A DNA stretch of 64,000 nucleotides from Shigella phage SP21535, in the sequence record PQ615101, one strand, 5' to 3'. Positions 12,460-62,617 of this stretch are shown here, one piece after another (within the stretch, counting starts at the first letter, position 1; each line of letters starts with the position of its first letter). A program made the position numbers and the translations under genes. The notes under the pieces were generated by a model that had not been told where the DNA came from, did not search any database, and worked only from the letters and a program-made list of their open reading frames with translations.

Positions 12460-12489
12460 GTTTACATCCCCGTTCTTCCATGGTACTAT
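12460..12489 (+). promoter_or_regulatory. T4-type early promoter within a PeSL-like cassette
   Basis: GTTTAC -35, 18-bp spacer, TACTAT -10; followed by the conserved leader caactatcaactgatac...ggagaataaaATG. Confidence 0.6.
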
Positions 12490-12523
12490 ACAACTATCAA
12501 CTGATACGGATTTGGAGAATAAA

Positions 12524-12904
12524 ATGAAAATCGCTATTTTGGTTATTGCATTGGGTCTTACTGGTTGTGTAGCTCAAGGACCGGTAGTAAATCAATCTGA
12601 TGTAGGAAAAATTGTAAACTGTTCAAGCAAATTTTATAATCCTAATGTTAAGTGTTATAAAGAAGCTCCAAAACAGACAGTAGAACAAATGCAGGCGAAT
12701 TTTGACGAAGCTATTCGTCCAGATGAATCTGCCCAAGCATATCGTAATTCAGATGTAATTACACGCGAAGAAAAAATTGAAAGCTACTGCGCTGAACTTT
12801 GGGCAAATTGGGCTAATAATTACCAATGGCGTACTGGTAAAAATGCTCCGATGGAGTATGTAGTGAATTCTTATAATTCATGTGTAAAAAATTTGACTAA
12901 GTGA
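12524..12904 (+). CDS. predicted lipoprotein
   Basis: Signal peptide with lipobox MKIAILVIALGLTGC; RBS GGAG before ATG. Confidence 0.55.
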   Translation: MKIAILVIALGLTGCVAQGPVVNQSDVGKIVNCSSKFYNPNVKCYKEAPKQTVEQMQANFDEAIRPDESAQAYRNSDVITREEKIESYCAELWANWANNYQWRTGKNAPMEYVVNSYNSCVKNLTK

Positions 12905-12911
12905 GGAAAAC

Positions 12912-13163
12912 ATGGAAACTTTAGTAGCAGGTTCAATTTTTATGGTTTTAGTTTCAGGCGTGTTGGCTATTATTATATACATGCTTCCATGGTTCATCGC
13001 CTTGATGCGTGGGTCAAAATCGACAGTAGGAATCTTTTTCACATCTTTACTGTTTAACTGGTCAATCATTGGTTGGTTTATTACTTTTATTTGGTCAATT
13101 GCTGGTGAAACTAAAAAGTCAACACAGCCAAATCAGGTAATTATCATCAGAGAGAAGGAATGA
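12912..13163 (+). CDS. imm: superinfection immunity protein Imm
   Basis: 83-aa two-TM membrane protein between 43 and 42, as in T4. Confidence 0.8.
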   Translation: METLVAGSIFMVLVSGVLAIIIYMLPWFIALMRGSKSTVGIFFTSLLFNWSIIGWFITFIWSIAGETKKSTQPNQVIIIREKE

Positions 13164-13309
13164 AAAGCAAAATTTTAGCAGTATTGCTTTTAATCTTGAT
13201 GATTATAATAAGTATATACTATAGTGTAACAGTTCCTTGTATGATTCCAACACTTATTATAGGGTGGAGTTTATTACTGTTACAAGTTAAATATGAATGC
13301 ATCAATTGA
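13160..13309 (+). CDS. small hydrophobic protein (49 aa)
   Basis: ATG overlaps imm stop (ATGA); MKSKILAVLLLILMIIISIYY... Confidence 0.3.
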   Translation: MKSKILAVLLLILMIIISIYYSVTVPCMIPTLIIGWSLLLLQVKYECIN

Positions 13310-13316
13310 GGTTTAA

Positions 13317-14057
13317 ATGATTAATAACTCTATGACAGTTGAAGAAATCCGTCTTTATTTGGGAATTGCATTAAAGGAAAAAGATTTCGTAATTGATAAA
13401 ACCGGTGTTAAAACTATTGAAATTATTGGTGCATCATTTGTAGCAGATGAACCTTTTATTTTTGGCGCTCTTAATGATGAATACATTCAGCGTGAACTTG
13501 AATGGTATAAGTCTCAAAGTTTGTTTGTTAAAGATATTCCAGGTGAAACGCCAAAGATTTGGCAACAGGTAGCATCTTCTAAAGGCGAAATTAACTCGAA
13601 TTATGGTTGGGCCATCTGGTCAGAAGATAACTATGCTCAGTATGACATGTGTTTAGCTGAACTTGGTCAAAATCCTGATTCTCGACGTGGTATCATGATT
13701 TATACTCGTCCATCTATGCAGTTTGACTACAATAAAGATGGTATGTCAGATTTCATGTGTACGAATACAGTACAGTACCTGATTCGTGATAAGAAAGTCA
13801 ATGCAGTGGTTAACATGAGAAGTAATGATTGCTGGGCAGGCTATCGTAATGATTATGCATGGCAAAAATATGTACTAGATAAATTAGTATCTGATTTGAA
13901 TGCAGGTGATTCAACTCGTCAGTATAAAGCAGGTTCCATTATATGGAATGTCGGGAGCCTTCATGTGTATTCCCGTCATTTTTATTTGGTTGACCATTGG
14001 TGGAAAACTGGCGAAACTCATATTGCGAAAAAAGATTATAACGGTGAGTGGAAATGA
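13317..14057 (+). CDS. 42: dCMP hydroxymethylase gp42
   Basis: 246-aa product near-identical to T4 gp42 as recalled (MI..SMTVEEIRL...HWWKTGETHI). Confidence 0.95.
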   Translation: MINNSMTVEEIRLYLGIALKEKDFVIDKTGVKTIEIIGASFVADEPFIFGALNDEYIQRELEWYKSQSLFVKDIPGETPKIWQQVASSKGEINSNYGWAIWSEDNYAQYDMCLAELGQNPDSRRGIMIYTRPSMQFDYNKDGMSDFMCTNTVQYLIRDKKVNAVVNMRSNDCWAGYRNDYAWQKYVLDKLVSDLNAGDSTRQYKAGSIIWNVGSLHVYSRHFYLVDHWWKTGETHIAKKDYNGEWK

Positions 14058-14896
14058 TTCAATTCGTAATTCCAAGCTATCAACGCGTAGGGGCAGTTTC
14101 TGCCCTTGATATGTTTCCGACTGATTATGAACCTCATATTGTAGTACGTGAACATGAAGAAAAAGCTTATTATGACGCTTACGGGTCTAGAGCTAAAATT
14201 ATAACTATTCCTGATGATGTTAATGGAATTGCTGGTACTCGTAAAGCAATTACTGATATGTATGCAGGTCAACGAATTTGGATGATTGATGATGATACTA
14301 CTATTCGTATGAGTTCAATACGAAAGAGAGACGATAAACGGCGTGTAGATAAAGTCAATCAATTGACTCGTGAGCAATTCTATGAATTAATTCAATACGT
14401 TGAGGATGCAATGGATTGCGGGTATTATCATGGTCATGCTCGTTTACCAATTTTTAAAATTACTTCATCTTGGGGTAATTATCGTGAAAATTCATATGGA
14501 TTCACGAATACATGGTATGATTTAGGAAAACTTACAACAGAACAAATTGGGTATGGAAAAATTGATTTATGTGAAGATATGTATGCATTTCTCAATTTAA
14601 TTAATCAAGGTTATCCGCATTTGGCCTTGTTCAAATATCTAGTTGTATCTGGAAAAGCACAAGCTCCTGGCGGATGTAGTTCAATTCGTAGTAATTCAAA
14701 ACATAATAGAGCTCTTGAGCAAATCAATAGAGAGTTTCCAGAGCAAGCTCGTTGGAAAACATCGAATATTGAAAAACGAAAATCGTTGGGTGAAGAAGAT
14801 GAACCGCTAAAGGTTCTTCGCATGTGTGTTTCGCGTAAAGAAAAATCAGAAGCATTTCATAAGTTTAATGCTATTCATCCAATAGCAGTTGATTAA
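14054..14896 (+). CDS. GT-A-fold (GT2-like, DxD) glycosyltransferase at the beta-gt locus
   Basis: N-terminal FVIPSYQR and WMIDDDT motifs typical of GT-A enzymes; start overlaps gene 42 stop (ATGA); does not resemble T4 beta-gt. Confidence 0.6.
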   Translation: MIQFVIPSYQRVGAVSALDMFPTDYEPHIVVREHEEKAYYDAYGSRAKIITIPDDVNGIAGTRKAITDMYAGQRIWMIDDDTTIRMSSIRKRDDKRRVDKVNQLTREQFYELIQYVEDAMDCGYYHGHARLPIFKITSSWGNYRENSYGFTNTWYDLGKLTTEQIGYGKIDLCEDMYAFLNLINQGYPHLALFKYLVVSGKAQAPGGCSSIRSNSKHNRALEQINREFPEQARWKTSNIEKRKSLGEEDEPLKVLRMCVSRKEKSEAFHKFNAIHPIAVD

Positions 14897-14973
14897 TGCC
14901 TAAATTTATTGTGTTATAATTACCCTATCTTTAACCAGTGAGGAAAATATAATGATGCTTATGGAAAAAATGA

Positions 14974-15903
14974 ATGTCTATTGCAGATTTAAAATCCCGT
15001 TTGATTAAAGCTTCCACTTCTAAAATGACTGCTGAACTGACTACATCTAAATTCTTTAATGAAAAGGATGTAATCCGTACAAAAATCCCAATGCTTAATA
15101 TCGCTATTTCTGGCGCGATTGATGGCGGCATGCAGTCTGGTTTAACTATTTTCGCAGGGCCTTCTAAACACTTTAAATCAAATATGTCTTTGACTATGGT
15201 TGCGGCATATTTAAACAAATATCATGACGCAGTTTGTCTATTCTATGATAGCGAATTTGGTATTACTCCAGCTTATTTGCGATCCATGGGAGTTGACCCG
15301 GAACGAGTAATTCATACGCCAATTCAGTCAGTTGAACAGCTGAAAATTGATATGGTGAACCAGCTTGAAGCTATTGAGCGTGGTGAAAAGGTTATTGTAT
15401 TCATCGACTCAATCGGTAATATGGCTTCTAAGAAAGAAACGGAAGATGCCTTGAATGAAAAATCTGTGGCAGATATGACTCGTGCTAAATCACTGAAGTC
15501 ATTATTCCGTATTGTTACTCCTTATTTTAGCATTAAAAATATTCCATGTGTTGCGGTTAACCATACAATTGAAACAATTGAACTGTTTAGTAAAACCGTG
15601 ATGACAGGTGGTTGTGTTATTGCTGGTACTAAAATCCAGATGTCCGATGGTTCTACTAAAGCAGTTGAAGATATTCGTCCAGGTGAGCGTGTTAAAACCA
15701 TGGTCGGTGATAATGAAGTAACTTATGTTTGGGACCCCGAAACTCTGGCTGAAGGTACTCCTGAATGTTTCGAAATTGAATTCGAAGACGGTTATAAAGT
15801 AACTACTTCAGATACTCACAAGTTCCTGGTAATGGTTAAAGACATTCCAACTTGGGTTGAAGCTAAAGATTTAGTAGCTGGAATGGATTGTGTTGTAAGG
15901 TAA
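14974..15903 (+). CDS. uvsX: UvsX recombinase N-terminal fragment (aa 1-213) fused to N-terminal split-intein half (96 aa)
   Basis: N-part matches T4 UvsX through ...FSKTVMTGG, then CVIAGTKIQMSDGS... (intein block A) and TTSDTHKF (block B), then stop. Confidence 0.85.
   Translation: MSIADLKSRLIKASTSKMTAELTTSKFFNEKDVIRTKIPMLNIAISGAIDGGMQSGLTIFAGPSKHFKSNMSLTMVAAYLNKYHDAVCLFYDSEFGITPAYLRSMGVDPERVIHTPIQSVEQLKIDMVNQLEAIERGEKVIVFIDSIGNMASKKETEDALNEKSVADMTRAKSLKSLFRIVTPYFSIKNIPCVAVNHTIETIELFSKTVMTGGCVIAGTKIQMSDGSTKAVEDIRPGERVKTMVGDNEVTYVWDPETLAEGTPECFEIEFEDGYKVTTSDTHKFLVMVKDIPTWVEAKDLVAGMDCVVR
15613..15900 (+). other. N-intein half (Hint domain N-terminal splicing region)
   Basis: Begins with Cys right after the UvsX sequence breaks off; blocks A and B present. 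Confidence 0.8.
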
Positions 15904-15907
15904 TAAA

Positions 15908-15947
15908 TATGGGTACCGGACTAATGTATATTTTTGAGGTACCCATA
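15908..15947 (+). promoter_or_regulatory. hairpin occluding RBS/start codon of the homing endonuclease gene
   Basis: Perfect 10-bp inverted repeat TATGGGTACC / GGTACCCATA with 20-nt loop; right arm covers GAGG and first base of the ATG. Confidence 0.5.
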
Positions 15948-16669: not shown

Positions 16670-16717
16670 GGCATTCGAAGATATGGTAAAAGAATTTGGA
16701 ATGAACATGACAATCAA

Positions 16718-16745: not shown

Positions 16746-16777
16746 GAAACTAGCTACTACGAAACACAAGGTAAAGT

Positions 16778-17771: not shown

Positions 17772-19199
17772 GTGGTAGAAATTATTCTTTCTCATCTCAT
17801 ATTTGATCAAGCTTATTTTTCAAAAGTTTGGCCATATATGGATTCAGAATATTTTGAAAGTGGTCCAGCTAAAAATACATTCAAATTAATTAAATCTCAT
17901 GTCAATGAGTATCATAGCGTTCCATCTATTAATGCGTTAAATGTTGCATTAGAAAATAGTTCATTTACTGAAACAGAATATTCTGGTGTAAAAACACTTA
18001 TTTCAAAACTGGCTGATTCTCCGGAAGACCACAGCTGGTTAGTAAAAGAAACAGAAAAATATGTTCAGCAAAGGGCGATGTTTAATGCTACGTCTAAAAT
18101 AATCGAAATTCAAACTAATGCTGAGCTTTCTCCGGAAAAACGAAATAAGAAAATGCCGGATGTTGGTGCTATTCCTGACATCATGCGCCAAGCATTATCA
18201 ATTTCATTTGATAGCTACGTTGGTCATGATTGGATGGATGACTACGAAGCACGTTGGCTATCTTATATGAATAAAGCTCGTAAGGTTCCATTTAAACTCA
18301 AAATTCTAAATAAAATTACTAAAGGCGGAGCTGAGACTGGAACACTGAACGTTTTAATGGCTGGTGTTAACGTTGGTAAGTCATTAGGTCTATGTTCATT
18401 GGCAGCAGATTATTTGCAGCTCGGACATAATGTTCTTTACATTTCCATGGAAATGGCTGAAGAAGTTTGTGCTAAACGTATTGACGCTAATATGCTTGAT
18501 GTTTCTCTTGATGACATTGATGATGGGCATATTTCTTACGCTGAATATAAAGGAAAAATGGAAAAATGGCGTGAGAAATCTACTCTTGGTCGTTTAATCG
18601 TTAAACAGTATCCTACTGGTGGAGCAGATGCTAACACATTCAGGTCTCTCTTGAATGAATTGAAGCTCAAGAAGAATTTTGTTCCAACAATCATTATTGT
18701 CGACTATCTAGGTATTTGTAAATCTTGCCGCATTAGAATTTATTCAGAAAATAGTTACACAACTGTTAAAGCTATTGCAGAAGAATTGCGTGCTCTGGCT
18801 GTTGAAACCGAAACTGTTCTTTGGACTGCAGCACAGGTTGGTAAACAAGCTTGGGATTCTTCTGATGTTAACATGAGTGATATTGCAGAATCCGCCGGTC
18901 TTCCAGCAACAGCCGATTTTATGCTTGCGGTCATTGAAACTGAGGAGTTAGCAGCTGCTGAACAACAACTCATTAAGCAAATCAAATCACGATATGGTGA
19001 TAAGAATAAATGGAATAAGTTTTTGATGGGTGTTCAAAAAGGAAATCAAAAATGGGTAGAAATTGAGCAAGATTCTACTCCAACTGAAGTGAACGAAGTA
19101 ACAGGTTCACAACAGATACAAGCTGAGCAGAATCGCTATCAAAGAAATGAATCTACTCGAGCCCAGTTAGATGCTTTAGCAAATGAATTAAAATTTTAG
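17772..19199 (+). CDS. 41: replicative DNA helicase gp41 (DnaB-like)
   Basis: 475 aa, GTG start after AAGGAG; Walker A GVNVGKS. Confidence 0.9.
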   Translation: MVEIILSHLIFDQAYFSKVWPYMDSEYFESGPAKNTFKLIKSHVNEYHSVPSINALNVALENSSFTETEYSGVKTLISKLADSPEDHSWLVKETEKYVQQRAMFNATSKIIEIQTNAELSPEKRNKKMPDVGAIPDIMRQALSISFDSYVGHDWMDDYEARWLSYMNKARKVPFKLKILNKITKGGAETGTLNVLMAGVNVGKSLGLCSLAADYLQLGHNVLYISMEMAEEVCAKRIDANMLDVSLDDIDDGHISYAEYKGKMEKWREKSTLGRLIVKQYPTGGADANTFRSLLNELKLKKNFVPTIIIVDYLGICKSCRIRIYSENSYTTVKAIAEELRALAVETETVLWTAAQVGKQAWDSSDVNMSDIAESAGLPATADFMLAVIETEELAAAEQQLIKQIKSRYGDKNKWNKFLMGVQKGNQKWVEIEQDSTPTEVNEVTGSQQIQAEQNRYQRNESTRAQLDALANELKF

Positions 19200-19228
19200 T
19201 TTACAAGCTGACAAGACTATGGTATAGT
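19199..19228 (+). promoter_or_regulatory. T4-type early promoter
   Basis: GTTTAC, 18-bp spacer, TATAGT; -10 lies inside inverted repeat CAAGACTA/TAGTCTTG. Confidence 0.6.
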
Positions 19229-19256
19229 AGTCTTGTTGGTTAAATGAGGAGATGTT

Positions 19257-19440: not shown

Positions 19441-19698
19441 ATGCATATTGTTTTATTTAAACCTACTCCGTATAATGTCAGGAAAAATACTCAATTCAAA
19501 GCACTTGTTGCAGATACGTGGGAATTGGTGTTAGATATTCCACCAGAAGAAAGTCCTCCATTTGGTCGAGTGGAATTTATTAAGTTTGCTGTTCGCCCTA
19601 CGAAGCGGCAGATTCGTCAGTGTAAAAGGTATTTTCGTAAGATCGTTAAGCTAGAGAAACAGTTTGTAACATGTGATTACGCAAAAGTTTTAAAATAA
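19441..19698 (+). CDS. hypothetical protein
   Basis: ATG 19441 after GAGGG; overlaps dmd stop. Confidence 0.4.
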   Translation: MHIVLFKPTPYNVRKNTQFKALVADTWELVLDIPPEESPPFGRVEFIKFAVRPTKRQIRQCKRYFRKIVKLEKQFVTCDYAKVLK

Positions 19699-19759
19699 CT
19701 GTTTACTTTTATTGGAAATTGAGATACTATATAAACATAAACTACTGAGGAGATTAATC

Positions 19760-21817: not shown

Positions 21818-21852
21818 ATGTCCTCCTTTAAATTAATATTTATCATAAATTT

Positions 21853-21882
21853 GTTTACTTTCTCAGCTTGTTATGGTATTAT
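21853..21882 (+). promoter_or_regulatory. T4-type early promoter
   Basis: GTTTAC, 18-bp spacer, TATTAT. Confidence 0.6.
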
Positions 21883-21907
21883 AAAATAAATTGCTGAGGA
21901 TGATATA

Positions 21908-23247
<1,340 letters not shown>

Positions 23248-24478: not shown

Positions 24479-24505
24479 AAGGACTCCTTCGGGAGTCCTT
24501 TTTTC
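24479..24505 (+). terminator. intrinsic terminator after soc
   Basis: AAGGACTCC-TTCG-GGAGTCCTT followed by TTTTTT. Confidence 0.7.
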
Positions 24506-24513
24506 ATTTTATG

Positions 24514-24543
24514 GTTTACTTTCCAAAATGAGTATGGTATAAT
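24514..24543 (+). promoter_or_regulatory. T4-type early promoter
   Basis: GTTTAC, 18-bp spacer, TATAAT. Confidence 0.65.
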
Positions 24544-24569
24544 AGAATTATCTTATAGAGGAGAGCACT

Positions 24570-26418: not shown

Positions 26419-26601
26419 ATGGATTTATTTGAGATGTTAGAAGATAATCATTCTACGAATATCCAGAATGATTCTAGTGATTATAAGAAAGAGTACCGTA
26501 TAGTATTACAGAATTATGGAATTGAAGCCCCAGATGCTCTTCTAGAAGAACTAGCTTCATACCATCTTGACCCTCCGCCTTGGGCTCCCTGGGCAAAATA
26601 A
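26419..26601 (+). CDS. hypothetical small acidic protein
   Basis: 60-codon ORF. Confidence 0.35.
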   Translation: MDLFEMLEDNHSTNIQNDSSDYKKEYRIVLQNYGIEAPDALLEELASYHLDPPPWAPWAK

Positions 26602-26612
26602 TTCAAAAAGTT

Positions 26613-26642
26613 GTTTACTTTCCTTCCTAACAATGATATGAT
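26613..26642 (+). promoter_or_regulatory. T4-type early promoter
   Basis: aaaaagttGTTTAC, 18-bp spacer, TATGAT. Confidence 0.6.
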
Positions 26643-26668
26643 AGCTTCTGAAGTATATGGAGGCTATC

Positions 26669-27891: not shown

Positions 27892-27947
27892 TGGAAGGAC
27901 TTAGATTCATTATACCATGAAAGTTTTAAAGCATTTTTCATAAAGTT

Positions 27948-27977
27948 GTTTACAAGCTGAAGTAAAAATGATATAGT
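27948..27977 (+). promoter_or_regulatory. T4-type early promoter
   Basis: GTTTAC, 18-bp spacer, TATAGT. Confidence 0.6.
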
Positions 27978-28006
27978 ATAAGTAGTTAACTGTCCGTGAG
28001 AAAAAT

Positions 28007-30884: not shown

Positions 30885-31567
30885 TGTTTGATTTTATTAT
30901 AGATTTTGAAACAATGGGAAGCGGTGAAAAGGCAGCTGTTATTGATTTGGCTGTTATTGCCTTTGACCCTAATCCAGAAGTAGTTGAAACGTTTGATGAA
31001 TTAGTTTCACGCGGCATTAAAATCAAGTTTGATTTAAAAAGCCAAAAAGGACATCGTCTTTTTACTAAAAGCACTATCGAATGGTGGAAGAATCAATCTC
31101 CTGAAGCTAGAAAAAATATTGCACCATCAGATGAAGATGTAAGCACTATCGATGGTATTGCAAAATTTAATGATTACATCAATGCACATAATATTGATCC
31201 TTGGAAATCTCAAGGCTGGTGCCGTGGAATGTCGTTTGATTTTCCAATTTTAGTCGATCTCATTCGCGATATTCAACGTCTTAATGGCGTTTCTGAGAAT
31301 GAGCTTGATACGTTTAAGTTAGAACCATGTAAATTTTGGAATCAGCGTGATATTCGTACCAGAATTGAAGCACTTCTGCTTGTTCGTGATATGACAACGT
31401 GTCCCCTTCCAAAGGGAACTTTAGATGGATTTGTTGCGCATAATTCTATTCATGACTGTGCGAAAGACATCCTGATGATGAAGTATGCTTTGCGATATGC
31501 TATGGGTCTTGAAGATGCTCCGTCAGAAGAAGAGTGCGATCCTCTATCTCTTCCAACAAAACGATAA
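30884..31567 (+). CDS. dexA: exonuclease A (DEDD 3'-5' exonuclease)
   Basis: 227 aa; N-terminal FIIDFET... acidic motif; recognised as T4 DexA. Confidence 0.85.
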   Translation: MFDFIIDFETMGSGEKAAVIDLAVIAFDPNPEVVETFDELVSRGIKIKFDLKSQKGHRLFTKSTIEWWKNQSPEARKNIAPSDEDVSTIDGIAKFNDYINAHNIDPWKSQGWCRGMSFDFPILVDLIRDIQRLNGVSENELDTFKLEPCKFWNQRDIRTRIEALLLVRDMTTCPLPKGTLDGFVAHNSIHDCAKDILMMKYALRYAMGLEDAPSEEECDPLSLPTKR

Positions 31568-31573
31568 AAAGTT

Positions 31574-31603
31574 GTTTACTTCCTCGGTTAGTTGTGGTAT
31601 TAT
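31574..31603 (+). promoter_or_regulatory. T4-type early promoter
   Basis: aaaaagttGTTTAC, 18-bp spacer, TATTAT. Confidence 0.6.
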
Positions 31604-31630
31604 AACACCATAGCTACTGAGGATAATAAA

Positions 31631-32133: not shown

Positions 32134-32676
32134 ATGAAATTTAATTATAATCCTGAATACACTCCAAATCCGGTAGCTAAACTGATTGATTTTGATGTTG
32201 TAAGCACTTATGTATGCCCTGTTAAACCGCTGGAAATTAAGGAACCTACTATGACTACCGCTATTGAAATCGGCAAAACTTACAAACTGGTTGAACCTAA
32301 AATTAAAACTAATGCCTTGATTTCCGGCCATAAAACTCTGACTGTTGTTTTTGGCGAAGGCGAATTTATTGTTGAAGACTTTGAAAAAAGTAAATGGTTT
32401 ACTAAATCTTATATTGTCCACGGTCGTCGTTTAGACAATAACAAAATAGAGAAAATCCTGGTTTATGAAGAAGAGTTCATCCTGTTCCAAGAAGTTGAAG
32501 AACAAGACCCTACTGACCTTCTAACTCGTGCTGTAGCTATTAAGACCCCATTTGTTTCGGTCTGTGGTTGGGTAACAGACCAGTGGATTGAAGATGGCGT
32601 TGAACTTCTGAATGTTGTTCATGCAGGTGATTTTAGTGTAGTACCTCGTAGTGCAGTGGTAGCTATTTTGAATTAA
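32134..32676 (+). CDS. hypothetical protein (paralog pair member A)
   Basis: 180 aa; C-terminal TDQWIEDGVELLNVVHAGDFSVVP. Confidence 0.5.
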   Translation: MKFNYNPEYTPNPVAKLIDFDVVSTYVCPVKPLEIKEPTMTTAIEIGKTYKLVEPKIKTNALISGHKTLTVVFGEGEFIVEDFEKSKWFTKSYIVHGRRLDNNKIEKILVYEEEFILFQEVEEQDPTDLLTRAVAIKTPFVSVCGWVTDQWIEDGVELLNVVHAGDFSVVPRSAVVAILN

Positions 32677-32678
32677 TA

Positions 32679-32708
32679 GTTTACAAACTCTTGGGACCAG
32701 AGTATAAT
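32679..32708 (+). promoter_or_regulatory. T4-type early promoter
   Basis: GTTTAC, 18-bp spacer, TATAAT; -10 in loop of GGACC/GGTCC inverted repeat. Confidence 0.65.
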
Positions 32709-32752
32709 GGTCCTGTGGAGTATAAAATCTTTTTAACAAGTGAGAGATAACT

Positions 32753-33250
32753 ATGATTATTAATATTGGTGAAATTGCTCGTGTATCTGATAAATCCCGT
32801 TCTAAAGCAGCAGGAAAATTGGTCGAAATTGTAAGCATTCAGCTTAAACATGGTGTTAAAGATGAAGATTCTGAAGTAAAAGTGCGTATCATTCCTAAAG
32901 ATGGAAAGTCTAAACCTCAGTTTGGCTATGTTCGTGCGAAATTTCTTGAATCTGCGTTTTTGAAAGCTGTTCCCGCTAAAGGAATTGAAACGATTGATAC
33001 TTCGCATGTAGGTGTAGACTTTAAGTGGAAACTCGGTCAAGCTATTAAGTTCATTGCTCCTTATGAATTCGAATTTACCGAAGATGAGGAAGGGATTGTT
33101 CAAAAACATCGTACTCGTGCTATGTGTGCATACATTACCGATCAATGGGTAGAAGATGGCGTTAAGTTGTACAACGCGGTATTTTTAGGAACATACAAAG
33201 TCATTCCTGAAAGCTGGATTAAACACTATAGCAAAGCTCGCTGTGCATAA
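32753..33250 (+). CDS. hypothetical protein (paralog pair member B)
   Basis: 165 aa; C-terminal TDQWVEDGVKLYNAVFLGTYKVIP. Confidence 0.5.
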   Translation: MIINIGEIARVSDKSRSKAAGKLVEIVSIQLKHGVKDEDSEVKVRIIPKDGKSKPQFGYVRAKFLESAFLKAVPAKGIETIDTSHVGVDFKWKLGQAIKFIAPYEFEFTEDEEGIVQKHRTRAMCAYITDQWVEDGVKLYNAVFLGTYKVIPESWIKHYSKARCA

Positions 33251-33422
33251 AGTTTAAAATTTTTTCATAAAACTATATACATCAGTAGTTGATTATGGTA
33301 CTATATCAATATCAACTACTGATACAGAAAACAACTTGGAGAATAAAATGGATAATTCGTTAAAGGTGCTGATACTCTTCTGAAACGCATCGCTCCAATG
33401 TTCAATTAATGAGGAAATTGTA

Positions 33423-34574: not shown

Positions 34575-36392
34575 ATGATTAAGAATGAAATTAAAATTCT
34601 GAGCGATATTGAACATATCAAAAAGCGTAGCGGCATGTACATTGGCTCTTCAGCTAATGAAATGCATGAGCGCTTTCTGTTTGGTAAATGGGAAAGTGTT
34701 CAGTATGTACCTGGTCTTGTTAAGCTTATTGATGAAATTATCGATAACTCAGTAGATGAAGGTATTCGTACTAAGTTTAAATTCGCAAATAAAATTAATG
34801 TTACTATTAAAAACAATCAAGTAACAGTTGAAGATAACGGTCGCGGTATTCCACAGGCGATGGTTAAAACACCTACCGGTGAAGAAATTCCTGGTCCTGT
34901 TGCTGCATGGACTATTCCAAAAGCAGGTGGTAACTTCGGTGATGATAAAGAACGCGTCACTGGCGGTATGAATGGTGTTGGTTCTAGTTTGACAAACATT
35001 TTTTCTGTGATGTTTGTCGGTGAAACTGGTGATGGTCAAAATAATATTGTAGTTCGTTGTTCAAATGGCATGGAAAATAAATCATGGGAAGATATTCCTG
35101 GAAAATGGAAAGGAACCCGTGTTACTTTCATTCCTGATTTTATGTCATTTGAAACTAATGAGTTGTCCCAAGTTTATCTTGACATTACACTAGATCGTCT
35201 CCAGACACTTGCTGTTGTTTATCCTGATATTCAATTTACCTTTAATGGTAAAAAGGTTCAGGGCAATTTTAAGAAATATGCACGACAGTATGATGAACAT
35301 GCTATCGTTCAAGAACAAGAAAATTGTTCTATTGCGGTTGGTCGTTCACCGGATGGATTTCGTCAATTAACATACGTCAATAACATTCATACTAAGAATG
35401 GTGGTCATCACATTGACTGTGTTATGGATGATATTTGTGAAGACCTTATTCCGCAAATCAAACGTAAATTCAAAATTGATGTAACTAAAGCACGTGTTAA
35501 AGAATGTTTGACTATCGTTATGTTTGTTCGTGATATGAAAAACATGCGGTTTGATTCTCAGACTAAAGAGCGTTTAACTTCTCCTTTTGGTGAAATTCGT
35601 AGTCATATTCAGCTTGATGCTAAAAAGATTTCACGCGCTATTCTAAATAATGAAGCAATTCTAATGCCGATTATCGAAGCTGCTTTGGCTCGTAAATTGG
35701 CGGCAGAAAAAGCAGCAGAAACTAAAGCAGCTAAAAAGGCTTCTAAAGCTAAGGTTCATAAACATATCAAAGCGAATCTTTGTGGTAAAGATGCTGACAC
35801 TACTCTTTTCTTGACTGAGGGCGATTCTGCTATCGGATATCTTATTGATGTTCGTGATAAAGAACTTCATGGTGGTTATCCATTGCGTGGTAAAGTTCTC
35901 AACAGTTGGGGTATGTCATATGCCGATATGCTTAAAAACAAAGAACTGTTTGATATTTGCGCAATCACTGGATTAGTTCTTGGCGAAAAGGCAGAGAATA
36001 CGAACTATCGTAATATTGCAATTATGACTGACGCAGATCACGACGGTCTTGGAAGTATCTATCCGGCTTTGCTTGCTTTCTTTAGTAATTGGCCTGAATT
36101 GTTTGAACAAGGACGTATTCGCTTTGTCAAAACTCCTGTAATCATCGCTCAGGTCGGTAAAAAACAAGAATGGTTTTATACAGTCGCTGAATATGAGAGT
36201 GCCAAAGATACACTGCCTAAGCATAGTATTCGATACATCAAGGGATTGGGCTCACTTCAGCGGGATGAATATAAAGAAATGATTCAAAACCCTGTGTACG
36301 ACGTAGTTAAACTTCCTGAGAACTGGAAAGAGCTTTTTGAAATGCTCATGGGAGATAATGCTGACCTTCGCAAAGAATGGATGAGCCAATAG
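34575..36392 (+). CDS. 39: DNA topoisomerase II large subunit gp39 (GyrB-like ATPase + Toprim), contiguous
   Basis: 605 aa; GHKL ATPase motifs at N-terminus and Toprim IMTDADHDG plus ...ADLRKEWMSQ at C-terminus in a single ORF. Confidence 0.9.
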   Translation: MIKNEIKILSDIEHIKKRSGMYIGSSANEMHERFLFGKWESVQYVPGLVKLIDEIIDNSVDEGIRTKFKFANKINVTIKNNQVTVEDNGRGIPQAMVKTPTGEEIPGPVAAWTIPKAGGNFGDDKERVTGGMNGVGSSLTNIFSVMFVGETGDGQNNIVVRCSNGMENKSWEDIPGKWKGTRVTFIPDFMSFETNELSQVYLDITLDRLQTLAVVYPDIQFTFNGKKVQGNFKKYARQYDEHAIVQEQENCSIAVGRSPDGFRQLTYVNNIHTKNGGHHIDCVMDDICEDLIPQIKRKFKIDVTKARVKECLTIVMFVRDMKNMRFDSQTKERLTSPFGEIRSHIQLDAKKISRAILNNEAILMPIIEAALARKLAAEKAAETKAAKKASKAKVHKHIKANLCGKDADTTLFLTEGDSAIGYLIDVRDKELHGGYPLRGKVLNSWGMSYADMLKNKELFDICAITGLVLGEKAENTNYRNIAIMTDADHDGLGSIYPALLAFFSNWPELFEQGRIRFVKTPVIIAQVGKKQEWFYTVAEYESAKDTLPKHSIRYIKGLGSLQRDEYKEMIQNPVYDVVKLPENWKELFEMLMGDNADLRKEWMSQ

Positions 36393-36421
36393 TTTACTTT
36401 ACCACAAGGATGTGGTATAAT
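36392..36421 (+). promoter_or_regulatory. T4-type early promoter
   Basis: GTTTAC, 18-bp spacer, TATAAT. Confidence 0.65.
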
Positions 36422-36446
36422 TAATTGGGCAAATGAGGATATTGAA

Positions 36447-40101: not shown

Positions 40102-40659
40102 ATGCAGAAAACGAATCCGGGTTTACAGAGACTATTTCAGATTCCGACATTTACCCTATCGAACAGTGACTTGACTAGTGAAATGAAGGTCAAAATTGCT
40201 GATACAGCAAGATACTCTTTAAAACAAAATCCTAATCAGGATAAAGCAGAAGTCATCGAAAGATGCCGTATCGCTGTGTATGCAGAGTTTTTTGTAGCAG
40301 ATTGGCTGAGCGGGTATGTTAACAAAGGCCAAGAGGATGTTAATGATCCGTATACATACGCATGGGATGTATTGGCGCATCCAAGATATTGCGGGCTTCG
40401 TGTAGAAGTTAAGACACATCAAACTGACTCACGTTGGATTTCGGTAACAACCGGATGCAGCGGAGAGTATCCATATGGTTCTGGAATAAATCTAGGGCCC
40501 ATTCTAAATCATCAAGTCGCTGACTGTATAATTATATTCAACACTAAAGAAATTCATCCAGGTGTCATCCAGTACACTTCGAAGTTCATCGGTGACAGAG
40601 AAGACCTTCGTAAGGTTGTAAGAAAAAGCAACTACAACGGATGGTATCTTTCCATTTAA
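40102..40659 (+). CDS. denB: endonuclease IV-like protein (DenB position)
   Basis: 185 aa ORF after rIIB, matching position and length of T4 denB; not sequence-verified. Confidence 0.5.
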   Translation: MQKTNPGLQRLFQIPTFTLSNSDLTSEMKVKIADTARYSLKQNPNQDKAEVIERCRIAVYAEFFVADWLSGYVNKGQEDVNDPYTYAWDVLAHPRYCGLRVEVKTHQTDSRWISVTTGCSGEYPYGSGINLGPILNHQVADCIIIFNTKEIHPGVIQYTSKFIGDREDLRKVVRKSNYNGWYLSI

Positions 40660-40675
40660 AAAAAATCACAAAACA

Positions 40676-40705
40676 GTTTACATACCACAAGGACTGTGGT
40701 ACTAT
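40676..40705 (+). promoter_or_regulatory. T4-type early promoter in PeSL-like cassette
   Basis: GTTTAC, 18-bp spacer, TACTAT, then caactatcagctacggaggagtaaaaATG. Confidence 0.6.
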
Positions 40706-40732
40706 ACAACTATCAGCTACGGAGGAGTAAAA

Positions 40733-40996: not shown

Positions 40997-41181
40997 GTTC
41001 ACTGTGGTGGTGTTTTGTTTGGTTAATTAGTATTCCAGTAATTTGTTTAACATTTACTTTTGTGATGAGGTTATTATGAAAATTTTGAATTCTGTACTTA
41101 TTGCTTGTGCGTGGTGGGTTGTGCAAGTTTCAGCGGTAGTAGTTGGTATTCACATTTATTACGAATATTTTTAAAAAAGTT

Positions 41182-41211
41182 GTTTACAAGACTGTTCTTC
41201 CGTGGTACTAT
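41182..41211 (+). promoter_or_regulatory. T4-type early promoter in PeSL-like cassette
   Basis: aaaaagttGTTTAC, 18-bp spacer, TACTAT, then ccctatcaactacggaggaacagaaaATG. Confidence 0.6.
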
Positions 41212-41239
41212 TACCCTATCAACTACGGAGGAACAGAAA

Positions 41240-44242: not shown

Positions 44243-44248
44243 TTTTAG

Positions 44249-44266
44249 GGAGAGCCTCGGCTCTCC
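44249..44266 (+). other. RNA hairpin without U-tract
   Basis: GGAGAGC-CTCG-GCTCTCC, immediately upstream of PeSL-like leader for motA. Confidence 0.4.
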
Positions 44267-44327
44267 AAAGCATACTGTGGTACTATACAACTATCAACTA
44301 CTGATACAGAATTACGGAGATTAGAAA

Positions 44328-46621: not shown

Positions 46622-46782
46622 GTCATAATCTTGAAAAGGTAATCGAGCATAATGTAGCTCAGGAACGCGAGTCGTTCAAGGAATTCGTAGAAAAAATTTT
46701 TGAAGAAAATACCACAGACCAGTTTACAAATCAAGCGTCTGATGATATTATAATAAAGTCAACTAATTGAGTGGTATAGTTA

Positions 46783-47737: not shown

Positions 47738-47743
47738 TCAAAA

Positions 47744-57200: not shown

Positions 57201-58081
57201 AATCTCCATAATTTCTCATTATCATCAAACATCAAGAAACCGTCAATCGTTGTACGGCCTTCAATGGAATGAGTTCCGACTTCTTGTATTGAAGTCGTTT
57301 CATCGTATGTAGTAACAATTGTATGATAAAGCGGATTTAGTTTATCTAAATCGACGAAATTAATAATATCGCCATGATTAGCAAATCTTGGAAGTTTAAC
57401 ATTAATTGGTGCAGCAGAAGTAAATCTACGCACGATAAAATCGTTGGATTGCGCTTGATAAGTATTCGCTGGTGTTACAACTACAGCTTCTCTACTATAA
57501 TCAGCAACATACATTTGCCACAGACGATTACTAAAAATTAAAACTATCTGCGATTTTGGATGAGTCATTAGTACTGAACGTACCTGTTCACCTCTAAAGT
57601 TTACAATACTTTGCACTGGAGCTACAATTAAAACTTGGTTAACTCCAGGTTTTCCTCCAATATCTTGGAGAACGATAGTATCACCATCAATTGGAGAAGA
57701 CGGTAAAGTAAACGTAATGTCATTTCCAGCTGCAGTGTTAACCGAAATTGCTTCACCCGATTTTAATTGATATGAACCAGATGAAACCGTAATCCAGTTA
57801 GCATCAGTACGTAATGCTCTCCAGCGTCCGCTATTAAAAGCTCCTGCTGGTTTTGGAATATCATTTATAGCAGCCCAAAAGCGGTTATCATAAATGATTA
57901 CAAAATCTTTTAAATATCCACGAGTTGGATCATATTGTTGAACTGTGTTTTCTTGAATTAAGTAATCAACGTTAACACCGTCAGTTCCTACGGTACGATC
58001 AGCTAAAGCTACGTTGATTATTTTATCGCCACCTGCGTCCAGACCATCTTCTGCTCTGAACTTTCTTTTAATCTCGGCCAT
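54212..58081 (-). CDS. 34: long tail fibre proximal subunit gp34
   Basis: 1289 aa; MAEIKRKFRAEDGLDAGGDKIINVALADRT...; internal repeated TPKxL / ATExxxG modules. Confidence 0.9.
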   Translation of the reverse strand: MAEIKRKFRAEDGLDAGGDKIINVALADRTVGTDGVNVDYLIQENTVQQYDPTRGYLKDFVIIYDNRFWAAINDIPKPAGAFNSGRWRALRTDANWITVSSGSYQLKSGEAISVNTAAGNDITFTLPSSPIDGDTIVLQDIGGKPGVNQVLIVAPVQSIVNFRGEQVRSVLMTHPKSQIVLIFSNRLWQMYVADYSREAVVVTPANTYQAQSNDFIVRRFTSAAPINVKLPRFANHGDIINFVDLDKLNPLYHTIVTTYDETTSIQEVGTHSIEGRTTIDGFLMFDDNEKLWRLFDGDSKARLRIITTNSNIRPNEEVMVFGANNGTTQTIELQLPTDISVGDTVKISMNYMRKGQTVKIKAAGEDKIASSVQLLQFPKRSEYPPETKWVTVQELVFNGETNYVPVLQLAYIEDSDGKYWVVQQNVPTVERVDSLNDSTRARLGVIALATQAQANVDLENSPQKELAITPETLANRTATETRRGIARIATTAQVNQNTTFSFADDIIITPKKLNERTATETRRGVAEIATQQETNAGTDDTTIITPKKLQARQGSESLSGIVTFVSTTGATPASSRELNGTNVYNKNTNNLVVSPKALDQYKATPTQQGAVILAVESEVIAGKSQEGWANAVVTPETLHKKTSTDGRIGLIEIATQSEVNTGTDYTRAVTPKTLNDRKATESLSGIAEIATQVEFDAGVDDTRISTPLKIKTRFNSTDRTSVVALSGLVESGTLWDHYTLNILEANETQRGTLRVATQVEAAAGKLDNVLITPKKLLGTKSTEAQEGVIKVATRSETVAGTSANTAVSPKNLKWIVQSEPTWAATTAIRGFVKTSSGSITFVGNDTVGSTQPLESYEKNSYAVSPYELNRVLANYLPLKAKAADTNLLDGLDSSQFIRRDIAQTVNGSLTLTQQTNLSAPLVSSSTATFGGSVSANSTLTISNAGTATRLIFEKGPQTGTNPAQTMNIRVWGNQFGGGSDTTRSTVFEVGDETSNHFYSQRNKAGNITFSINGTVMPINVNASGLMNVNGTATFGRSVTANGEFTSKSANAFRAINGNYGFFIRNDGGSTYFMLTASGDQTGGFNGLRPLAINNASGQVTIGERLIIAKGATINSGGLTVNSRIRSQGTKTSDLYTRAPTSDTVGFWSIDINDSATYNQFPGYFKMVEKTNEVTGLPYLERGEEVKSPGTLTQFGNTLDSLYQDWITYPTTPEARTTRWTRTWQKTKNSWSSFVQVFDGGNPPQPSDIGALPSDNATMGNLTIRDFLRIGNVRIIPDPVNKTVKFEWVE

Positions 58082-58115
58082 TCTCCCGGGCTCCTATTGT
58101 GTTTTCAATAATAAG

Positions 58116-58123
58116 TATTTATA
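58116..58123 (-). promoter_or_regulatory. late promoter (TATAAATA) for gene 34
   Basis: Exact TATAAATA on minus strand about 35 nt upstream of gene 34 ATG. Confidence 0.7.
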
Positions 58124-58126
58124 CTT

Positions 58127-58156
58127 GTTTACTTTAAGATTTGGATAGTATATAAT
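58127..58156 (+). promoter_or_regulatory. T4-type early promoter for rnh, divergent from the gene 34 late promoter
   Basis: GTTTAC, 18-bp spacer, TATAAT. Confidence 0.65.
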
Positions 58157-58185
58157 AGAAATCTCACTAATTGAACGAGGTTCAT

Positions 58186-60446: not shown

Positions 60447-61382
60447 ATGTTTAAACGTAAATCTACTGCTGAACTCGCTGCACAAATGGCTAAACTGGCT
60501 GGAAATAAAGGTGGTTTTTCTTCTGAAGATAAAGGCGAGTGGAAACTGAAACTCGATAATGCGGGTAACGGTCAAGCAGTAATTCGTTTTCTTCCGTCTA
60601 AAAATGATGAACAAGCACCATTTGCACTTCTTGTAAATCACGGTTTCAAGAAAAATGGTAAATGGTATATCGAAACATGCTCATCTACCTACGGTGATTA
60701 CGATTCTTGTCCAGTATGTCAGTACATCAGTAAAAATGATTTGTATAATACTGACAATAAAGAGTACGGTCTTGTTAAACGTAAAACTTCTTACTGGGCT
60801 AACATTCTTGTTGTAAAAGACCCAGCTGCTCCAGAAAATGAAGGTAAAGTATTTAAATACCGCTTCGGTAAGAAAATCTGGGATAAAATCAATGCAATGA
60901 TTGCAGTTGATGTTGAAATGGGTGAAACTCCGGTTGATGTAACTTGTCCGTGGGAAGGTGCTAACTTTGTACTGAAAGTTAAACAAGTTTCTGGTTTTAG
61001 TAACTACGACGAATCTAAATTCCTGAATCAATCTGCGATTCCAAACATTGATGATGAATCTTTCCAGAAAGAACTGTTCGAACAAATGGTTGACCTTTCT
61101 GAAATGACTTCTAAAGATAAATTCAAATCGTTTGAAGAATTGAGCACTAAGTTCAGTCAAGTTATGGGAACTGCTGCTATGGGCGGTGCCGCAGCAACTG
61201 CCGCTAAGAAAGCTGATAAAGTTGCTGATGATTTGGATGCATTCAATGTTGATGACTTCAAAACAAAAACTGAAGATGATTTTATGAGCTCAAGCTCTGG
61301 CAGTTCATCTAGTGCTGATGACACGGACCTCTCTGTTCTTCTATGGTACTATACAACTATCGGCAATACTGCTGATGATTAA
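60447..61382 (+). CDS. 32: single-stranded DNA-binding protein gp32 (variant C-terminus)
   Basis: [24 protein letters not shown]...; zinc-binding Cys/His cluster; Ser-rich SSSSGSSSS tract; last 16 aa encoded by PeSL-like sequence. Confidence 0.9.
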
Positions 61383-61395
61383 AGAGGAAAATAAT

Positions 61396-61623
61396 ATGGC
61401 TAAAGTTGATATTGACATCGTTGATTTTGAATATATTGAAGAAATTATTCGTAATCGTTATCCTGAACTTAGTATCGCAAGCGTACAAGATTCTAAGTTT
61501 TGGAGTATTCAAATCGTTATTGAAGGTCCTCTTGAAGACCTCACCCGCTTTATGGCTAATGAATATTGCGATGGCATGGATGCTGAAGACGCAGAATTTT
61601 ATATGGGACTGATTGAACAATAA
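61396..61623 (+). CDS. hypothetical acidic protein
   Basis: 75 aa; RBS AAGAGGAAA. Confidence 0.5.
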
Positions 61624-61668
61624 TTATCAAGGGGCTATTACAGTCCCGTTAAAATGAGGAAAATCAAA

Positions 61669-62055
61669 ATGGAAATCGGCAAAAAATATGAGTTAAATCC
61701 ACACCGTATTAAATCTTTCATTGATATTAGTTCATCAAATGCTAATATGGTCAGCATCATTCAAGAAAATGGCGGTTGGTTTGAAGTTAAATCAATATCA
61801 AGTTTAGATGGCTTTGATTATGTAACCGAAATCATTTGTGCTAATGGCGAAATCTATAATGATGATGGCATAGGTGATGATTATTTTGAACTTAGTGAAG
61901 AAGAGTTTTATTGTTTCCGCGAGTATAAAGAACCGACTTCTGAAGAAGATGAAGTCGAAGACAAGGTTTCTGGCGTAACAAAAATTCACTGCATTGTAGA
62001 CGAAAACAATGTAGATGAAATCATTGAACTTTTGCGAAAAACTTTTAAGGCCTAA
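61669..62055 (+). CDS. hypothetical acidic protein
   Basis: 128 aa; RBS GAGGAAAA; alternative upstream ATG 61654. Confidence 0.5.
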   Translation: MEIGKKYELNPHRIKSFIDISSSNANMVSIIQENGGWFEVKSISSLDGFDYVTEIICANGEIYNDDGIGDDYFELSEEEFYCFREYKEPTSEEDEVEDKVSGVTKIHCIVDENNVDEIIELLRKTFKA

Positions 62056-62056
62056 T

Positions 62057-62317
62057 ATGACTAAAGATGATTTCCTGGATGCGGTAGAAAAAGCTAGTGA
62101 GAAATTTGAAGTGATGGGTGTACGGGTCCATAAAGACAGAAATTACGGACTCGATATTCAAACGTATTCGTTATGGCTTGTGGGTGAACACAGTCTTGTG
62201 ACCAATTTAGTTATGGGTGTCGATACCTATCCTCTATTGGTTAAGTTCAGAAGTATGGAAAAGGCTACTAAAGAAATGATTAAGCTTGGTAAGTGGCTCG
62301 ATAAAATTCAAAAATAA
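62057..62317 (+). CDS. hypothetical protein
   Basis: 86-codon ORF, near-contiguous with the previous ORF. Confidence 0.45.
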   Translation: MTKDDFLDAVEKASEKFEVMGVRVHKDRNYGLDIQTYSLWLVGEHSLVTNLVMGVDTYPLLVKFRSMEKATKEMIKLGKWLDKIQK

Positions 62318-62319
62318 TT

Positions 62320-62349
62320 GTTTACAACGGGCTATGGTAGTGATACTAT
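62320..62349 (+). promoter_or_regulatory. T4-type early promoter in PeSL-like cassette
   Basis: GTTTAC, 18-bp spacer, TACTAT, then tagccttatcaactaaggagaataaaATG. Confidence 0.6.
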
Positions 62350-62374
62350 AGCCTTATCAACTAAGGAGAATAAA

Positions 62375-62617
62375 ATGAGATTACAACGCCAGAGCATTAA
62401 AGATTCAGAAGTTAGAGGTAAATGGTATTTTAATATCATCGGTAAAGATTTTGATCTCGTTGAAAAAGCCGAACATCTTTTACGTGATATGGGATGGGAA
62501 GATGAATGCGATGGATGCCCTCTTTATGAGGATGGAGAAAGCGCAGGATTCTGGATTTATCATTCTGACGTTGAACAGTTTAAAGCTGACTGGAAAATTG
62601 TGAAAAAGTCTGTTTGA
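62375..62617 (+). CDS. hypothetical protein
   Basis: 80 aa; ATG after ggagaataaa leader. Confidence 0.45.
   Translation: MRLQRQSIKDSEVRGKWYFNIIGKDFDLVEKAEHLLRDMGWEDECDGCPLYEDGESAGFWIYHSDVEQFKADWKIVKKSV

Follow-up and report, generated by a model that had tools for sequence, protein, structure and literature searches.

The early promoters of bacteriophage T4 have been described as "uber" promoters in which the UP element, -35, TGn and -10 are accompanied by additional regions of consensus (PMC2988021), and composite elements that combine an early promoter with a stem-loop (PeSLs) were defined for phages RB49 and phi1 (Arbiol 2010; PMC2839356). According to Arbiol et al., T-even phages carry analogues rather than homologues of the RB49 PeSLs, namely AT-rich hairpins of variable size located on T4 early promoters (PMC2839356). 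Comeau 2014 gave the PeSL consensus of the T4/PST pair as TTTACW-N17-TAYWAT, with the ndd region as an example, and also covered the KVP40/nt-1 pair (PMC4122927). Here we describe a family of early promoter/leader cassettes in a 64,000-nt stretch of Shigella phage SP21535 (sequence record PQ615101; the whole stretch is called the window, and all positions refer to it). A sequence-only reading of this DNA had recognized the cassettes as those of a T4-type genome and had invoked the PeSL literature, and both attributions hold. Very probably, the family consists of early promoters (Pe) that depend on sigma-70 and belong to a T4-like phage, with a subset that shares a leader and recombines between loci.

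Like published PeSLs, the cassettes of the window consist of an early promoter, joined in a subset to a clear stem-loop, and end in the Shine-Dalgarno sequence (SD) and ATG of a small open reading frame (ORF). All sites fit the T4/PST consensus, and the stem-loops take the placements known from the published sub-classes, either ahead of the promoter, inside it or overlapping it; the ndd region, an example of exchange in the literature, lies within the window. They differ from the published model in that their stem-loops are AT-rich and variable rather than of the G(n)...C(n) form, that only a seven-member sub-family behaves as the model predicts, and that the general association with insertions and deletions is not significant against two comparators. 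The arrangement also recalls lambdoid morons and integron cassettes, a comparison drawn in the PeSL literature (PMC2839356): a single accessory ORF moves together with a promoter of its own and sometimes with a terminator. The cassettes differ in that they have neither an integrase nor an attC-like site, their ORFs point the same way as the neighbouring genes, and the flanking regulatory repeat is itself the proposed site of exchange. T4 early promoters and the PeSLs of the T4/PST pair are already known, and the family holds nothing outside published knowledge; the new details, of modest interest, are two window-specific deletions and an altered gp32 tail. For the most part the analysis bears out, in a new relative, what textbooks say of T4; it also sets promoters conserved in place apart from an exchanging sub-family, and so tempers the general claim that cassettes mark shuffled genes.

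By sequence comparison, the window belongs to a Tequatrovirus that is ~95% identical to T4. Genome searches gave identities of 95-97% to many Tequatrovirus relatives of T4 and found no near-identical genome; Ec_MI-02, considered as a close relative, was rejected as such on an overall identity of only ~95%, and outside two truncated cassettes (see below) the window diverges by 4-5% from every relative examined. Its gene order follows the T4 map read as the reverse complement: 55, 43, uvsX, 41, 61, dda, 39, rIIA, rIIB, denB, ndd, 52, motA and asiA, followed by tail-fibre genes 38-34 on the other strand and then by rnh, 59, 32, frd and td. Promoters are not annotated in the regions used of the T4 records NC_000866 and AF158101, so they were matched by position; T4 and Ec_MI-02 were the only comparator genomes for synteny breakpoints and gene slots. 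A scan of viral contigs with a 24-nt leader sequence returned 12 loci on 5 contigs, too few for a population test.

The cassettes belong to the T4 early promoter class

The motif GTTTAC-N18-TAnnnT has 16 exact matches in the 64-kb window, all on the + strand, where 0.85 are expected by chance and the largest count in 100 dinucleotide-preserving shuffles was 4. Allowing one mismatch or other spacer lengths yielded extra sites without strand bias, which we regard as noise. Fifteen of the 16 exact sites sit 25-44 nt upstream of an SD and ATG, and T4 itself has 39 matches to the motif, all on its early strand. The sequence-only reading had counted at least 14 copies, a figure borne out by these matches, and the ORF starts that it named (12524, 40733, 41240, 44328 and 62375) are all correct. 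In an unbiased search for direct repeats, the cassettes came out ahead of all other dispersed families (D1, D3, D4, D9 and D12).

The consensus reaches beyond the two hexamers: in the information profile, a UP element rich in A/T and the TGn of an extended -10 stand out as well. Each unit is built of the UP element, the -35 GTTTAC, an 18-bp spacer ending in TGn, the -10 TAnnnT, a leader of 25-44 nt and an SD that often contains GGAG. A weight matrix built solely on the non-hexamer positions of T4 promoters gave the 15 intergenic sites scores of +4.5 to +31.9, whereas random positions scored -25 +/- 10. The remaining exact match, at 57599..57628 (+), was rejected as a family member: located within gene 34 in antisense orientation, it is devoid of UP element, TGn, SD and ATG, and scores -19.5 (its T4 counterpart at 151291 scores -20.0), a random-like value at a site of which about one is expected by chance. 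Its hexamers are conserved in T4 because the gene 34 coding sequence is conserved.

Every sequence-level feature that defines the T4 early promoter class and was tested is present in these cassettes, which agree with T4 in their hexamers and the distance between them, in TGn and the A/T-rich UP element, and in strand and position relative to genes. Seventeen of the 18 real cassettes of the window stand at T4 orthologous positions, including those of imm.1, dmd, sp, mrh.2, modB, srd, motB.2, motB, rIIA.1, ndd.6, ndd.4, motA, asiA, rnh, frd.3 and the ORF upstream of frd.1. The differences from T4 are few. The promoter at 21853 has no T4 counterpart, T4 having lost that module; the motA and frd.3 promoters are without UP element and -35 in this genome only; and some alleles of the window are unlike the T4 allele at the same locus. 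By analogy with published T4 biology, host RNA polymerase would fire the cassettes immediately after infection, and each would act as a self-contained immediate-early expression unit composed of a very strong promoter, a short leader and an SD.

A seven-member sub-family shares a leader and has mosaic alleles

Seven cassettes, at 12460, 33275, 40676, 41182, 44257, 61323 and 62320, form a sub-family that shares the UP element, the extended -10 and the leader. The near-identical leader that the sequence-only reading had noticed behind several copies, TGGTACTATACAACTATCAACTAC, has four matches with at most 3 mismatches, against 0.00 expected, as well as copies with 4-6 mismatches at 41203, 61344 and 62341 and a weaker one at 19722; the partial copies near 33285 and 61330 likewise exist as described. 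Three members are without GTTTAC, with ATATAC in its stead at 33275, a stem-loop in the place of the -35 at 44257, and a position in the 3' end of gene 32 at 61323. The motA copy (44257), which had been listed as an example of the family, therefore has the -10 and the leader but is partial. Near-identity within the sub-family spans 20-60 nt, compared with 35-41 nt at 66-78% for the other copies; the PeSL model calls for conservation over ~100 bp, long enough for recombination.

The resemblance among copies persists once the hexamers are set aside, which was the point on which the sequence-only reading had staked its proposal. Mean pairwise identity over non-hexamer positions is 0.36, versus 0.27 for random genomic pairs. 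We also permuted alignment columns among the copies, a procedure that keeps the consensus and destroys the copy-to-copy relationship. For the leader, the ten most similar pairs had a mean identity of 0.672, against a null maximum of 0.616 in 1000 permutations, and for all non-hexamer positions the corresponding values were 0.514 and 0.499, such that the top pairs beat all 1000 nulls in both cases. There are two layers of similarity, a general extended promoter consensus and a true leader sub-family.

Several members carry alleles that match other loci better than their own. The cassette of the imm.1 homologue (DUF5481; 12430..12523, +; -35 at 12460, -10 at 12484, SD GGAGAATAAAA at 12514, ATG at 12524) is mosaic: its promoter half has an identity of 0.86 to the T4 e.8 cassette and 0.72 to its own orthologue, and its leader is that of the T4 nrdC.11 cassette, with 30 of 30 nt identical (1.00). 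The leader of the cassette downstream of denB (40646..40732, +), which would drive an 87-aa ORF (40733-40996; phrog_2390), has its best T4 match in the non-orthologous nrdC.9. At the frd.1 (DUF5417) cassette (62290..62374, +; SD GGAGAATAAAA at 62365, ATG at 62375, and a hairpin that includes the -10, -15.6), the best match is again non-orthologous and its own orthologue is not matched. At the frd.3 locus T4 has a spacer allele that it shares with its own nrdC.11 cassette, and GRNsp7, fPS-90 and the window carry another allele, which resembles the imm.1 and e.8 cassettes. The cassette of the ndd.4-like ORF (41152..41239, +; ATG at 41240) has an identity of 0.99 to T4 166807.

The degraded cassette at 33245..33383 (+) consists of the -35 ATATAC, a -10 at 33299, an SD GGAGAATAAAA at 33338 and an 11-codon remnant ORF (33348-33383). 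Its ATATAC is found in T4 and Ec_MI-02 too, and it has an inverted repeat of -19.3; it is an old degraded copy that is shared with T4. Both here and at T4 e.8, the identity runs through the ATG into the first codons. Sequence anatomy, orthology, mosaicism and slot polymorphism are observed here. Near-identity over 20-60 nt would permit occasional ectopic recombination or gene conversion by the phage recombination system, and such exchange would leave cassettes with mosaic alleles and let small ORFs replace one another in the downstream slot.

Gene slots behind the sub-family vary among relatives

Comparison of flanking genes with T4 and Ec_MI-02 revealed variable slots at sub-family cassettes. 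The slot downstream of denB holds ORF87 in the window and an unrelated ORF68 in Ec_MI-02 (a 68-aa ORF module at 25148-25354, absent from the window), and is empty in T4, where its state corresponds to a deletion between the TAAAATG repeats that flank ORF68. Behind the cassette upstream of cef (33275), Ec_MI-02 has an intact 89-aa ORF, and the window and T4 have an internally deleted remnant. The frd.2/frd.1 slot is different in all three genomes. Upstream of sp, Ec_MI-02 has an extra module (18594-18860) that is absent from the window and comprises a cassette, whose promoter has a 9-12 bp repeat straddling the -10, and a 60-aa ORF. The variable ORFs all fall in phage protein families of unknown function. 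Several of these differences reflect loss of an ORF by T4 rather than gain by the window.

We also considered whether the T4 ndd.6 leader might carry the first four codons of imm.1 and rejected this reading, as Ec_MI-02 has a resident mini-ORF, ATGAAAATCG(C/T)TGAGATTGAACTATGA, in that slot; the resemblance to imm.1 may be the remnant end of a leader or a coincidence.

A breakpoint or deletion is present at five of the seven sub-family cassettes and at two of the 11 others (p=0.039, post hoc). On this comparative evidence, only the seven-member sub-family would qualify as PeSLs in the strict sense of recombination-prone elements with ORF turnover. The sequence-only reading had proposed that the cassettes mark recently shuffled cargo genes, and this survives only for the sub-family; as a general statement it does not stand, with ten promoters inherited in place and no general enrichment of breakpoints (see below).

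Stem-loops and predicted masking of the SD

Terminator hairpins with a T-run, or their remnants, precede the promoters of 24514 and motA, and in T4 the motA, frd.3 and nrdC.11 cassettes have a terminator followed by TTTTTTATTTTAAAAATTTTTTCACAAAAC and then by GGTTTAC. Such upstream hairpins would insulate some units from upstream transcription. Other inverted repeats straddle the -10, with one arm in the spacer and the other in the leader. Repeats beyond the 1st percentile of random positions occur at five of 19 window sites (19199, 31574, 32679, 33275 and 41182; ~0.2 expected) and at 10 of 39 T4 sites (~0.4 expected), and native arms pair better than swapped partners (p=0.0065 for T4 and 0.055 for the window). 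In a generic search for any hairpin, cassettes and controls did not differ in the fraction of sites at or below -8 kcal/mol, and roughly every second site is without a notable hairpin. At 41182, a 14-bp inverted repeat lets the spacer, GTTCTTCCGTGGT, pair with the SD region, ACTACGGAGGAAC (-23.3).

About one third of the units have a repeat that straddles the -10 and that would be able to fold only in transcripts reading through from promoters further upstream. In 34 cassette genes of T4, the predicted accessibility of the SD was 0.60 in RNA from the gene's own promoter versus 0.38 in read-through RNA, a mean difference of 0.215 compared with 0.055 in 118 control genes (p=0.0004), and the difference was at least 0.3 in 12 of the 34 cassette genes and in 9 of the 118 controls. 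At 41182, the predicted unpaired probability of the SD falls from 0.64 in own-promoter RNA to 0.00 in read-through RNA, with a rank of 0.00 among swapped halves. Clear partner-specific masking was predicted in the window only at 41182, and in T4 at regB, rnlA, e.8 and nrdC.11.

The configuration at 41182 is like that of T4 e, soc, 49 and I-TevI, in which the promoter sits within or beside a hairpin and the SD lies in the 3' arm of that hairpin and is free only in transcripts from the proximal promoter. Those genes use late promoters, whereas the cassettes of the window are early promoters, and across the whole cassette set partner-specific masking is not significant. The complementarity between spacer and leader might, as a tentative and in our estimate unlikely proposal drawn from these structure predictions, discriminate between transcripts by origin, exposing the SD and the site of the endoribonuclease RegB only in own-promoter RNA. 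If so, immediate-early genes would share the late-promoter logic of T4 e, soc, 49 and I-TevI, the presence of an own promoter for each small ORF inside a long co-directional transcription unit would be explained, and the motA and frd.3 deletions described below would be natural experiments in collapsing insulated units. Predicted SD masking by repeats that straddle the -10 is in any event a testable regulatory idea for T4 early genes.

Ribosome-binding sites resemble RegB targets

RegB has the strong cleavage consensus GGAGRAYARAA, and secondary structure protects GGAG from it (PMC3014915). This consensus has three exact matches in the window (12514, 33338 and 62365; 0.44 expected), all of them in cassette leaders and all reading GGAGAATAAAA. 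GGAG is present in 11 of 18 cassette SDs, which, like T4 RegB targets, have GGAG followed by an A-rich tract; the other seven differ in having no GGAG, and cleavage in this genome is a prediction from the motif. By extension from T4, cutting at GGAG by RegB with ribosomal protein S1 would make cassette expression transient. The motA SD, GGAGATTAGAAA, is identical to that of T4 motA, the ribosome-binding site that we take to be the original RegB substrate.

Two cassettes are truncated only in this genome

The only deletions of at least 20 bp that are specific to the window relative to both comparators affect the motA and frd.3 cassettes. At motA (44248..44327, +; ATG at 44328), a terminator stem (44248-44266) runs straight into the spacer with its TGn, followed by the -10 (44281) and the leader. 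The 42 bp missing at the junction 44266/44267, CTTTTTTATTTTAAAAATTTTTTCACAAAACGGTTTACAACC, comprise the T-run, UP element and GTTTAC and are present in T4 and every other relative; all ~400 full-length matches in the phage collection align to this region in two pieces, over ~292 bp for a query of 251 bp. In consequence, motA would rely on read-through transcription or on the extended -10 promoter alone.

At the second locus, a deletion of ~105 bp relative to GRNsp7, fPS-90 and T4 fuses the frd.3 cassette to the gene 32 frame, leaving a truncated cassette (61331..61395, +) with a spacer remnant, the -10 at 61347, the leader and the ATG at 61396. The deleted segment, which is kept in all ~495 matches, begins with the seven final codons of gene 32 and its stop; a terminator (GGGGACC...GGTCCCC), the UP element and GTTTAC are lost with them. 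Because the deletion removed the stop codon along with the terminator and -35, gene 32 (60447-61382) now stops at 61380-61382, inside the frd.3 leader, and the last seven residues of gp32 (DDLLNDL in T4; end ...DDTDLDDLLNDL) are replaced by 16 residues encoded by the frd.3 -10 and leader. The exact gp32 variant has no record in public assemblies. The acidic tail of gp32 mediates contacts with replication proteins, and a T4 specialist might want confirmation of this change.

Both junctions have 2-bp microhomologies. The alignments indicate that the truncations at 61323 and 44257 are local microhomology deletions unique to this genome and not cassette insertions. Should they be real, both deletions convert an insulator made of terminator and promoter into a junction open to read-through, in which the TGn and -10 are retained.

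Exchange between loci compared with other explanations

Several results weigh against the reading as early promoters of which a subset exchanges between loci. The similarity that the repeat finder detected between copies extends over no more than 35-41 nt (66-91%), a short stretch for homologous recombination. Breakpoints relative to T4 and Ec_MI-02 are not enriched at cassettes (6/18 gaps versus 14/60 others, p=0.29; 6/15 among other gaps of at least 40 nt), in a test in which crude gene calls mis-assigned two gaps, and the enrichment at the sub-family (p=0.039 and 0.017) is post hoc and concerns 7 sites. Several junctions lie inside ORFs or at microhomologies of 2-7 bp rather than running from cassette to cassette, so ordinary illegitimate deletion contributes and cassette homology is not the sole driver. 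As for the stem-loops, a generic best-hairpin test was only weakly significant (p=0.017), and partner-specific SD masking was not significant (native 0.215 versus swapped halves 0.168, p=0.19). Promoter activity and start sites, finally, are presumed from T4. Some of these results fit pure convergence, in which independent promoters would have come to resemble one another under selection for maximal RNA polymerase binding with no exchange between loci: 10 of 18 cassettes match only their own T4 orthologue, general breakpoint enrichment is absent, and a strong consensus beyond the hexamers is expected for this promoter class. We nonetheless consider convergence quite improbable, since the most similar pairs exceed all 1000 column-permutation nulls, the 12460 leader coincides in all of 30 nt (100%) with that of a T4 cassette at a non-orthologous locus and is unlike its own orthologue, the frd.3 spacer alleles each resemble paralogues elsewhere, and identity passes the ATG into the first codons at 33275 and T4 e.8.

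At the other extreme, the cassettes might be actively mobile, with cassette and ORF excising together as mini-circles that re-integrate at other cassettes, possibly with the help of a dedicated protein. Such a model, with detection of circles, was published for RB49/phi1 (PMC2839356), and it would accommodate cargo slots with three alternative states as well as the denB slot, where ORF68 of Ec_MI-02 is flanked by the repeated leader ends GGAGAATAAAATG ... GAGTAAAATG and T4 has the excised state. No recombinase was identified, however, circles are not detectable from sequence, the repeats on either side measure only 7-13 nt, many junctions fall at microhomologies within ORFs and most cassettes are positionally stable, which together make active mobility very improbable. 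The leader and inverted repeats might instead serve primarily in control at the RNA level (SD masking, protection from RegB, processing) and be conserved for that function rather than through recent recombination. The excess of predicted masking in cassettes over control genes and the complete masking at 41182 speak for this explanation, as does the same logic established for the late promoters of T4 e, soc, 49 and I-TevI (PMC3014915). We think it unlikely as the primary explanation: swapped halves mask almost as well as native ones, such that masking is mostly generic to pyrimidine-rich spacers, 12460, 40676, 44257 and 62320 show little or no specific masking, and no Rfam family reached threshold anywhere in the window. 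There is, finally, the somewhat doubtful but less remote prospect that the motA and gene 32/frd.3 truncations are artefacts of sequencing, cloning or assembly. Both are unique among ~400-500 relatives, the gp32 variant is without public record, both remove a hairpin-adjacent segment of a very strong promoter, and very strong promoters have reportedly been recovered in plasmid clones almost only with mutations (PMC2839356); against this, the flanks are clean, the 2-bp microhomologies are typical of real deletions, and lineage-specific changes are expected in a genome that is otherwise 4-5% diverged. Exchange among a subset of inherited early promoters is the explanation that we prefer.

Promoters inherited in place

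For ten promoters outside the sub-family, the best match is their own T4 orthologue (0.78-1.0), with the next best at ~0.5, and comparison of the loci indicates that they are independent promoters inherited in place upstream of conserved genes. All of the promoters described in this section are on the + strand. Those of dmd (19169..19256; -35 at 19199, ATG at 19257) and sp (spackle; 19671..19759; -35 at 19701, ATG at 19760) both have an identity of 0.91 to their T4 orthologues, at 20612 and 20109, respectively; the former has a 13-bp inverted repeat straddling the -10 (-16.8 kcal/mol), and the latter weakly resembles the leader sub-family. The mrh.2 locus (24481..24569) has the canonical layout of a terminator followed by a promoter, with GGACTCCttcgGGAGTCC and a T-run (-15.1 kcal/mol) ahead of the -35 at 24514 and the ATG at 24570. 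The modB promoter (26583..26668; -35 at 26613, ATG at 26669) has an identity of 0.96 to T4 13186, and that of srd (27918..28006; -35 at 27948, ATG at 28007) has one of 0.86 to T4 11851, with a 7-bp deletion in its leader relative to both comparators.

The strongest inverted repeat straddling a -10 (-23.5 / -23.1), with the SD within its 3' arm, is that of motB.2 (31544..31630; -35 at 31574, ATG at 31631), whose promoter has an identity of 1.00 to T4 8218; the motB promoter (32649..32752; -35 at 32679, ATG at 32753) has a similarly placed repeat of -17.2. Identities to T4 are 0.97 for rIIA.1 (36362..36446; -35 at 36392, ATG at 36447; T4 2458), 0.96 for asiA (46692..46782; -35 at 46722, ATG at 46783; T4 161211) and 0.99 for rnh (58097..58185; -35 at 58127, ATG at 58186; T4 150763).

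The promoter of a 186-aa ORF (21823..21907; -35 site at 21853; ORF at 21908-22468), located between gene 61 and dam, scores +12.7 over its non-hexamer positions with no T4 orthologue in the training set. The module of promoter and ORF is present in ~155 of ~500 relatives, including T2. At this locus T4 has only the last 29 codons of the ORF and no promoter, so it was T4 that lost the module. The ORF (phrog_8706) lies directly upstream of and overlaps dam (GATC methyltransferase, 22468-23247), and in its carriers, about one third of relatives, it is always at this position. Its resemblance to restriction endonucleases of type II is weak and does not reach threshold (PADLOC REase_II, E=9e-5; Pfam DpnII, E=0.0045, which misses the cut-off).

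Other features of the window

The only other dispersed family in the direct-repeat search consists of GGGCTTCGGCCC hairpins, which have UUCG as their loop and runs of A/T on both sides, at 2908, 7618, 9565, 34500, 39778 and 40014; they resemble intrinsic terminators and lie between early and middle genes. The large subunit of the topoisomerase is a single 606-aa ORF (34572-36392), and the segment that splits it in T4 (mobA / 60.1 / gene 60, including the translational bypass region) is absent at 35992-36056, as it is in Ec_MI-02. At the boundary of uvsX and gene 40, ~1.27 kb (15612-16892) that are absent from T4 and Ec_MI-02 contain a 240-aa ORF (15947-16669), for which a homing endonuclease is only a guess. 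The distal tail-fibre region (47737-52206; genes 38 and 37) shows either no relationship to T4 or an identity of just 74%, and the ORF in the position of gene 38 has 264 aa, compared with 183 aa for T4 gp38, suggesting a T2-type adhesin arrangement.

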